Origin: Candidatus Jordarchaeales archaeon
GTDB lineage: Archaea > Asgardarchaeota > Jordiarchaeia > Jordiarchaeales > Freyrarchaeaceae
Direction: 5' to 3'
Assembly: GCA_038858525.1 (NCBI GenBank)
Contig: JAWCFL010000011.1
Location: 1 to 32,000, forward strand
Length of the DNA stretch: 32,000 bases
Shown: piece by piece, positions 10,466-10,948 of the stretch
How positions within the stretch are numbered: the first letter of the stretch is position 1
Layout: each line of letters begins with the position of its first letter
Notes under the pieces: generated by a model
Database searches by the model: none
Told to the model about the DNA's origin: nothing
The model's input: the letters and a program-made list of their open reading frames with translations, nothing else
Program-made: the position numbers and the translations under genes

Positions 10466-10479
10466 CGAAAAACTTAATA
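10466..10479 (+). promoter_or_regulatory. BRE/TATA promoter of tRNA-Met
   Basis: CGAAAAACTTAATA about 30 nt upstream of tRNA position 1 (10510). Confidence 0.6.
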
Positions 10480-10509: not shown

Positions 10510-10695
10510 GCCGGGGTAACCTAGCCACGCTACGCTAGAATGGATCGCACCCGCCCAGAATGGGTGCCGGACTCATAATCACACCCAAAAAAGGGGTCGG
10601 ACAAAAAACATGGGACATCCGGTTGCAGGGGTTCGAATAAAGCAGTCACACAAAAAGGAATAGTGACTGCTTAGTCGGAAATCCCCTCCCCGGCA
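10510..10695 (+). tRNA. tRNA-Met(CAT), elongator type, with four BHB introns
   Basis: Removing 10527-10540, 10546-10560, 10578-10616 and 10638-10681 gives a 74-nt cloverleaf GCCGGGG TA ACCT AGCCTGGATT GGGT G CCGGA CTCATAA TCCGG TTGC AGGGG TTCGAAT CCCCT CCCCGGC A with fully paired acceptor, anticodon and T stems; CCA not encoded. Confidence 0.9.
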
Positions 10696-10761: not shown

Positions 10762-10948
10762 TGGAGCCGCCGGAGGGAGTTCCGATAAGCAGCTACCCGA
10801 TAGGCAGCTACAATAGACTCGTTAGGATAGCTGCTCTTTTTCGAACCCTCGACCCGCGGATGGCGTGACCTGCAGGTTTAAACTTGCAGATTTACAATTG
10901 CGGTACGCAGAGGGATGTCCGCCGCTCTACCGGCTGAGCTACGGCGGC
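10762..10948 (-). tRNA. tRNA-Thr(TGT) with three BHB introns, CCA encoded
   Basis: Removing 10916-10898 (32/33), 10892-10862 (37/38) and 10839-10779 (59/60) gives 76 nt GCCGCCG TA GCTC AGCCGGTA GAGC G GCGGA CTTGTAA TCCGC GGGTC GAGGG TTCGAAT CCCTC CGGCGGC T CCA. Confidence 0.92.

Follow-up and report, generated by a model that had tools for sequence, protein, structure and literature searches.

Introduction

In Atabeyarchaeia and Freyarchaeia, 92–95% of the tRNA genes are interrupted, and over half carry several introns (PMC11291895). Supplementary Data 4 of this study (Valentin-Alvarado et al. 2024; PMC11291895) includes columns for four introns, and the four-intron genes in it are those of Freya Ile2-CAT, Freya Arg-TCT and Atabeya-2 Trp-CCA, the last with four observed. 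A preprint census by Goswami et al. (bioRxiv 10.64898/2026.10.13.758758) gives 2.0 inserts per tRNA gene for Jordiarchaeaceae, 2.0–2.4 across three focal families and a maximum of five in one gene, together with an average of 1.54 introns per gene in Pyrobaculum calidifontis, and states that inserts of the D-arm are especially missed by tRNAscan-SE.

Here, we analysed a 32,000-nt stretch of DNA (the window) that holds a tRNA-Met gene with four inserts. Multi-intron tRNA genes are also known outside the Asgard archaea: Sugahara and colleagues reportedly described two- and three-intron tRNA genes in Thermoproteales in 2007 and 2008 (cited in PMC11291895 and PMC4090602), and to our knowledge three introns per tRNA gene is the maximum in the Thermoproteales literature. 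The present host is not a member of the Thermoproteales; it is a hot-spring Asgard archaeon of the Jordarchaeum group (Jordarchaeia). Its assembly (G000), with an estimated completeness of 92.7%, spans 63 contigs that add up to 2.09 Mb at a G+C content of 47.5%. We compared it with ten relatives of its order, among them three genomes of the same genus (G001–G003), one of another genus of the same family (G004) and four of a sister family (G007–G010). It is very likely that this locus is a functional, apparently single-copy gene for elongator tRNA-Met(CAU) with four protein-spliced bulge-helix-bulge (BHB) introns, and that it is one ordinary member of a lineage-wide pattern.

Results

The cloverleaf dictates four inserts in BHB register

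The tRNA-Met gene covers 186 nt (window 10510–10695, +), divided between five exons (74 nt) and four inserts (112 nt, 60%), and is closed by a 7-bp acceptor stem, GCCGGGG/CCCCGGC, plus A73. This stem was fixed by direct reading, as were those of the D-arm (ACCU/GGGU), the anticodon arm (CCGGA/UCCGG) and the T-arm (AGGGG/CCCCU). We then used a solver confined to the loops of the cloverleaf to find removals in BHB register that shrink each loop to canonical size and sequence; in this register, pairing joins four exon nucleotides, 2 nt upstream of the 5' cut, to four intron nucleotides at the same distance upstream of the 3' cut. The solver recovers four inserts of 14, 15, 39 and 44 nt at sites 17/17a, 20a/21, 37/38 and 59/60, and thereby reproduces to the base the anatomy given in the initial annotation of this DNA, namely a 186-nt gene, four inserts with their helices, 112 nt of intron and a 74-nt cloverleaf. 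Just two solutions exist for the D-region, both of which include IVS1 and the better of which has IVS2 at 10546–10560. For the anticodon loop and the T-loop, the single-cut solutions are IVS3 and IVS4 only, all other solutions being the same insert taken out in two sequential cuts. ARAGORN types the 74-nt spliced product as tRNA-Met(cat) with a canonical cloverleaf, in agreement with the identity assigned initially.

Exon 1 (10510–10526, +) provides the acceptor 5' strand, U8, A9, the D-stem 5' strand and D-loop nucleotides A14–C17. It is followed by IVS1 (14 nt, D-loop 17/17a, 10527–10540, +), in which a central helix CUAG/CUAG (4/4) is flanked by bulges CC-A and AA-U and by an intron-side helix h' of CG/CG, giving a motif of HBh' type. 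Exon 2 consists of only five nucleotides, UGGAU (10541–10545, +), which represent D-loop position 17a, G18, G19 and two further loop nucleotides, and IVS2 (15 nt, D-loop 20a/21, 10546–10560, +) again shows an HBh' motif, with central helix CUGG/CCAG, bulges AU-C and AA-U, and h' GC/GC. Exon 3 (10561–10577, +) carries U21, the D-stem 3' strand, G26, the anticodon-stem 5' strand and C32–A37 with the anticodon CAU. IVS3 (39 nt, 10578–10616, +) lies at the canonical site 37/38 and forms an hBH motif with central helix CUCA/UGGG and 3' bulge AC-A, the anticodon stem serving as h. Exon 4 (10617–10637, +) comprises A38, the anticodon-stem 3' strand, a 4-nt variable loop, the T-stem 5' strand and T-loop U54–A59, and precedes IVS4 (44 nt, T-loop 59/60, 10638–10681, +), an hBH motif with central helix UUCG/CGGA, bulges AA-U and AA-U, the T-stem as h and a 10-bp intron hairpin. 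Exon 5 (10682–10695, +) completes the molecule with U60, the T-stem 3' strand, the acceptor 3' strand and the discriminator A73; CCA is not encoded.

The division of the D-loop segment into two inserts follows from exon 2. The two strands of the D-stem are 39 nt apart, and the sole GG of this stretch lies in exon 2; two separate inserts are therefore needed if G18G19 is to be kept. A single D-loop intron was rejected, as the GG lies mid-way in this stretch and no one cut leaves a D-loop that retains G18G19.

Upstream of the gene, a TATA-like box, TTAATA (10474–10479, +), is positioned 31–36 nt from the mature 5' end and is preceded by an A-rich, BRE-like stretch; it may act as the promoter, and an A-rich/TTTAATA element recurs at equal upstream distance in the orthologues of G001–G004. 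Downstream, a convergent tRNA-Thr(UGU) gene occupies window 10765–10948 (−), measures 184 nt with an encoded CCA to 10762, and apparently has three inserts, two in the anticodon loop at about 32/33 and 37/38 and one of 61 nt in the T-loop.

The four BHB motifs do not arise by chance

The central helices are fully paired (4/4) for all four inserts, that of IVS2 after removal of IVS1 (3/4 before). Since 163 cuts in the gene show a 4/4 central helix, this property alone discriminates poorly, and a stricter class was therefore adopted, combining a 4/4 central helix with a flanking helix (h or h') of at least 2 bp. When 5301 arbitrary cuts, each defined by start and length, were tested, only 12 (0.23%) fell into the strict class, yet all four sites dictated by the cloverleaf belong to it, with an h' of 2 bp in IVS1 and IVS2, an h of 6 bp in IVS3 and an h of 5 bp in IVS4. 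A chance origin of the motifs is excluded.

The two D-loop motifs are relaxed, in that their outer exon helix h has just 1 bp. In the minimum-free-energy fold of the full precursor, the motifs of IVS3 and IVS4 are formed with their 3-nt 3' bulges in place; for IVS2, folding indicates that the 3' bulge may become a 2 × 2 internal loop if A14 pairs with U21. Judged from these motifs, the locus appears to contain four BHB introns, and the small D-loop inserts would be excised along with the two larger ones.

Orthologues vary in insert content and keep the spliced tRNA

The orthologues of G001–G003 have inserts at all four sites, with diverged intron sequences and lengths. Specifically, IVS1 measures 26, 37 and 30 nt and IVS2 16, 14 and 15 nt in G001, G002 and G003, respectively, the overall ranges among orthologues being 14–37 nt for IVS1 and 12–16 nt for IVS2. 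The G004 orthologue has IVS1–IVS3 and no T-loop insert; its intact T-loop, TTCGAAT, is exactly the junction predicted by removal of IVS4 in the host. In the sister family (G007–G010), the inserts at 37/38 and 59/60 are present, the D-loop insert is absent and the D-loop reads AGCCTGGTAT. This 10-nt loop has the same length as the spliced D-loop of the host, AGCCTGGATT, and both end in T before the D-stem. A collection-wide scan for the double D-loop insert pattern returned Candidatus Jordarchaeia archaeon QC4, Candidatus Jordarchaeum sp. LHC_1308 and one MAG labelled Thermoproteota. These matches, combined with the identity of relative G006 as Freyarchaeia, assign the host to Jordarchaeia.

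ARAGORN types the spliced product as tRNA-Met(cat) in the host and in seven orthologues. Across these eight spliced sequences, all stem pairs are kept except 13:22 in two genomes, and compensatory changes occur at pairs 3:70, 5:68, 10:25, 29:41, 49:65, 50:64, 51:63 and 52:62. The intron helices change in a compensatory manner as well: the IVS4 central helix passes from UUCG/CGGA to UUCA/UGGA in G002 and G003, and the h' of IVS1 is maintained by differing sequences, as GC/GC in G004, 5 bp in G001 and G002, and 3 bp in G003.

These comparisons also bear on U21, which had been singled out at first as a reason to doubt the IVS2 boundary. Because sister-family D-loops that lack an intron also end in T, U21 is a lineage trait and not a boundary error, and to this extent the doubt is lifted. 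Among the orthologues, position 21 can be U, A, C or G, an uncommon degree of variation in a tRNA, and this variation leaves the 3' cut of IVS2 uncertain by about 1 nt.

Standard finders miss this gene and most tRNA genes of the host

In the unspliced window, neither ARAGORN nor Rfam at the gathering threshold reports any tRNA, as the initial annotation had suspected of standard finders. The sole gathering-threshold match of Rfam in the window is the 3' end of a 23S rRNA gene at the contig start (1–89, +; LSU_rRNA_archaea, model positions 2903–2987). At the scale of the whole genome, the gene is missed by ARAGORN with or without the intron option, and the Rfam tRNA model likewise gives no match to it at E values of up to 10. 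Over the 2.09 Mb, ARAGORN finds 5 of about 46 expected tRNAs, or 9 when introns are allowed, and the Rfam tRNA model finds 5; the case thus illustrates that nearly all tRNA genes of the host genome escape standard finders.

A custom rough scan parsed about 20 host tRNA genes, nearly all of them with enlarged D, anticodon or T regions. The tRNA-Tyr(GTA) gene, for example (contig C3:78516–78740, +; 225 nt), has inserts of 29 nt in the D-loop, 46 nt in the anticodon loop and 20 nt in the T-loop, each with a 4/4 central helix, and about 57 extra nucleotides in the variable region, for which the solver yielded no clear set of cuts, which brings it to at least four inserts.

The gene very probably encodes the elongator tRNA-Met

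The studied gene has CAU in a CUCAUAA loop, G1–C72 and A73, and the base of its anticodon stem is free of a run of three G–C pairs. The host genome also contains an intron-free CAT gene (C3:22477–22551, +) that we assign to the initiator tRNA-Met on account of its A1–U72 pair and GGGG/CCCC anticodon stem. This initiator gene is among the very few wholly intron-free tRNA genes in the host genome.

The orthologue in the complete Freyarchaeia genome (G006; 1505101–1504955) lies beside tRNA-Thr(TGT), the coordinates matching entries 35 and 7 of Supplementary Data 4 of PMC11291895, where the orthologue is typed as Met by tRNAscan-SE 2. The Met–Thr gene pairing is thus syntenic between the host and Freyarchaeia. 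The Freyarchaeia Ile2(CAT) gene begins with GGGCCCG, as does the host tRNA-Ile(GAU) gene, and the studied gene begins with GCCGGGG; together with the Met typing of the Freyarchaeia orthologue, this points indirectly to Met as opposed to Ile2. When the Freyarchaeia Ile2 sequence was used as a query on the host genome, it matched only tRNA-Ile(GAU) and three tRNA-Ala genes, and neither this query nor anticodon-arm scans found a tRNA-Ile2(CAU) in the 92.7%-complete assembly, whose complement of CAT tRNA genes is therefore incomplete. The missing tRNA-Ile2(CAU) gene is either more heavily disrupted or located in the unassembled 7% of the genome. With respect to a second elongator tRNA-Met, a point raised in the initial annotation, three independent scans of the same 92.7%-complete assembly found no other elongator-type CAT tRNA gene.

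Alternative readings of the locus

Three other readings of the locus were weighed against four introns in one working gene. If only the inserts at 37/38 and 59/60 were introns, the mature tRNA would retain the D-loop segments and have a D-loop enlarged to 39 nt. The 1-bp outer helix of the relaxed D-loop motifs is in keeping with this, and so is the behaviour of tRNAscan-SE, which, according to the Goswami et al. preprint (bioRxiv 10.64898/2026.10.13.758758), often keeps such D-arm stretches within the 'mature' tRNA. The same preprint, however, finds missed D-arm inserts at canonical BHB boundaries 6–10 times over null models. Moreover, the compact D-loop of the sister family is equivalent to the end of host exon 1, exon 2 and U21, and the D-loop segments, for all their variation in length, keep the exact BHB register at CUAG...CUAG-AA and CCAG-AA and have a covarying h'. 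We therefore regard retention of the D-loop segments as very unlikely. Still less probable is a decaying pseudogene or redundant copy, with a working elongator tRNA-Met elsewhere. At a completeness of 92.7%, a second copy could be unassembled, and the Freyarchaeia genome table lists two Met(CAT) genes (PMC11291895, Supplementary Data 4); against this reading, every stem is intact and covaries across two families, the promoter-like element is conserved, synteny with tRNA-Thr is kept, and the three scans of the assembly found no other elongator-type CAT gene.

The remaining reading, which we hold to be the least probable of all, concerns the anticodon loop, where two introns could be removed in succession, one with the pairing ACUC/GGGU from 36/37 to after GGGUCR and then one with CUCA/UGGG, for a total of five introns and a tRNA with G37. 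In its favour, the ACUC/GGGU pairing is complete (4/4) and, owing to conservation of the GGGGTCRGA element, recurs in G000–G003 and G006. The two-intron path, however, yields the loop CUCAUGA (G37), whereas the single-intron path yields CUCAUAA (A37), as found in the spliced orthologues. A37 (t6A) is expected for AUG decoding, which speaks against a G37 product. In addition, the ACUC/GGGU motif is devoid of an outer helix, and the minimum-free-energy fold gives a single canonical motif. The two-step path to G37 was thus rejected on the basis of its loop sequence, the fold and the missing outer helix, and the reading with four introns, one of them at 37/38, is retained.

Removal of IVS1 completes the IVS2 motif

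In the precursor, the central helix of IVS2 is AUGG/CCAG, with three of four positions paired. Removal of IVS1 joins C17 to U17a and thereby completes the 4-bp helix as CUGG/CCAG. The same gain from 3/4 to 4/4 is seen in G002 and G004, and the IVS2 helix is 3/4 in G001 and G003. In line with this gain, in the minimum-free-energy fold of the D-arm the IVS2 motif appears only once IVS1 has been removed. Helix gain and fold together make splicing of IVS1 before IVS2 likely, and we propose that splicing of the D-loop is probably ordered, with IVS1 preceding IVS2.

The host encodes the proteins that such splicing would call on. Two paralogues of EndA, 191 and 198 aa long and 32% identical, each have PF01974 and PF02778 (the N and C domains; regions C3:81835–82089, −, and C43:5978–6235, +), and an RtcB (PF01139) is also encoded in the host genome. 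One EndA paralogue has a Tyr/His/Lys motif region, and the second appears, in one pairwise alignment, to be without the catalytic His aligned to DHAP of the first. This apparent loss of His suggests an (αβ)2-type splicing endonuclease in an Asgard archaeon. In Thermoproteales, introns are processed by a broad-specificity two-subunit EndA, and the host pair, as far as its sequences indicate, would resemble the broad-specificity crenarchaeal (αβ)2 enzyme. The gene would be transcribed as a precursor of about 190–200 nt; as the motifs and gene content suggest, the two-subunit endonuclease would cut within the 3-nt bulges and RtcB would ligate the five exons into the 74-nt tRNA.

A nine-nucleotide element is conserved in the 37/38 intron

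IVS3 contains an element, GGGGTCGGA (10593–10601, +), that conforms to GGGGTC(A/G)GA. The tRNA-Met 37/38 intron carries this motif in 11/11 genomes of the order, in 4/4 Odin-like genomes (a family with genomes of 1.3–1.4 Mb, apparently Odinarchaeia) and in Atabeyarchaeia, so that it spans three Asgard classes, and the intron outside it diverges. Of the matches outside Jordarchaeia, Odin-like and Atabeya genomes, those whose loci were retrieved lay in coding sequence and were dismissed as chance. The same 9-mer is also found within the tRNA-Leu(UAA) D-loop intron of 5/5 genomes of the host family (in the host, C12:55613–55675, −).

The last two nucleotides of the element pair with intron nucleotides 2–3 to form h', and its GGGUC can pair with tRNA nucleotides 30–34 (GACUC or GACUU), which tRNA-Met and tRNA-Leu(UAA) share. 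A box C/D guide was rejected for now, as the intron is without C or D boxes and the N+5 rule misses C34, and a search of the host genome found no C/D-like RNA antisense to the element. A mimic of the 5' strand of the anticodon stem was likewise rejected, since its R position shows no covariation with pair 29:41, and no covariation that would account for the element was found. The element might pair with nucleotides 30–34 before splicing and in this way guide or gate the modification of the wobble base; alternatively, it could mark a shared intron family.

Discussion

The locus offers a fully resolved case, backed by comparison with relatives, of a single D-loop that holds two introns separated by 5 nt, and it would lend itself well to tests of ordered BHB splicing and of how specific the Asgard two-subunit endonuclease is. 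What might be new is tentative: we give fairly low credence to the joint proposition that GGGGTC(A/G)GA acts as a cis-element, as opposed to being neutral intron sequence, and that the D-loop introns are spliced in obligate order. Of all parts of this case, only the conserved intron element might open up something new.

The number of introns, in contrast to what was claimed at first, does not set this gene apart. The initial annotation called four introns in one gene exceptional. Four-intron genes are tabulated in PMC11291895, the Goswami et al. preprint (bioRxiv 10.64898/2026.10.13.758758) reports up to five inserts, and the host tRNA-Tyr gene itself has at least four. The claim finds no support, for it rests on the Thermoproteales literature and its benchmark of three introns, the wrong comparison for a host that belongs to the Asgard Jordarchaeia. 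As tRNA genes with four or five introns have already been reported in Jordarchaeia, Freyarchaeia and Atabeyarchaeia, the known picture is unchanged: heavy interruption runs through the tRNA genes of this genome and lineage, and the gene is one ordinary instance of that pattern, a clean case but no record.

Among described systems, Freyarchaeia, which fall in the same order as the host, and Atabeyarchaeia share with it BHB-type introns at non-canonical sites of the D-arm and T-arm in addition to 37/38. Unlike the Freya tRNA-Met orthologue, which has two introns (D-loop and 37/38), the host gene has four, adding a second D-loop intron and one at 59/60; moreover, the host family (Jordarchaeum, hot spring) differs from Freyarchaeia and stands outside the table of PMC11291895. 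The census of Goswami et al. covers Jordiarchaeaceae and places inserts at canonical BHB boundaries, as in the host gene, but it is statistical, and its accessible part describes neither an excision that completes the next motif nor the GGGGTCRGA element (bioRxiv 10.64898/2026.10.13.758758). Thermoproteales also have several BHB introns at D-loop, anticodon-loop and T-loop positions, but they belong to a different phylum.
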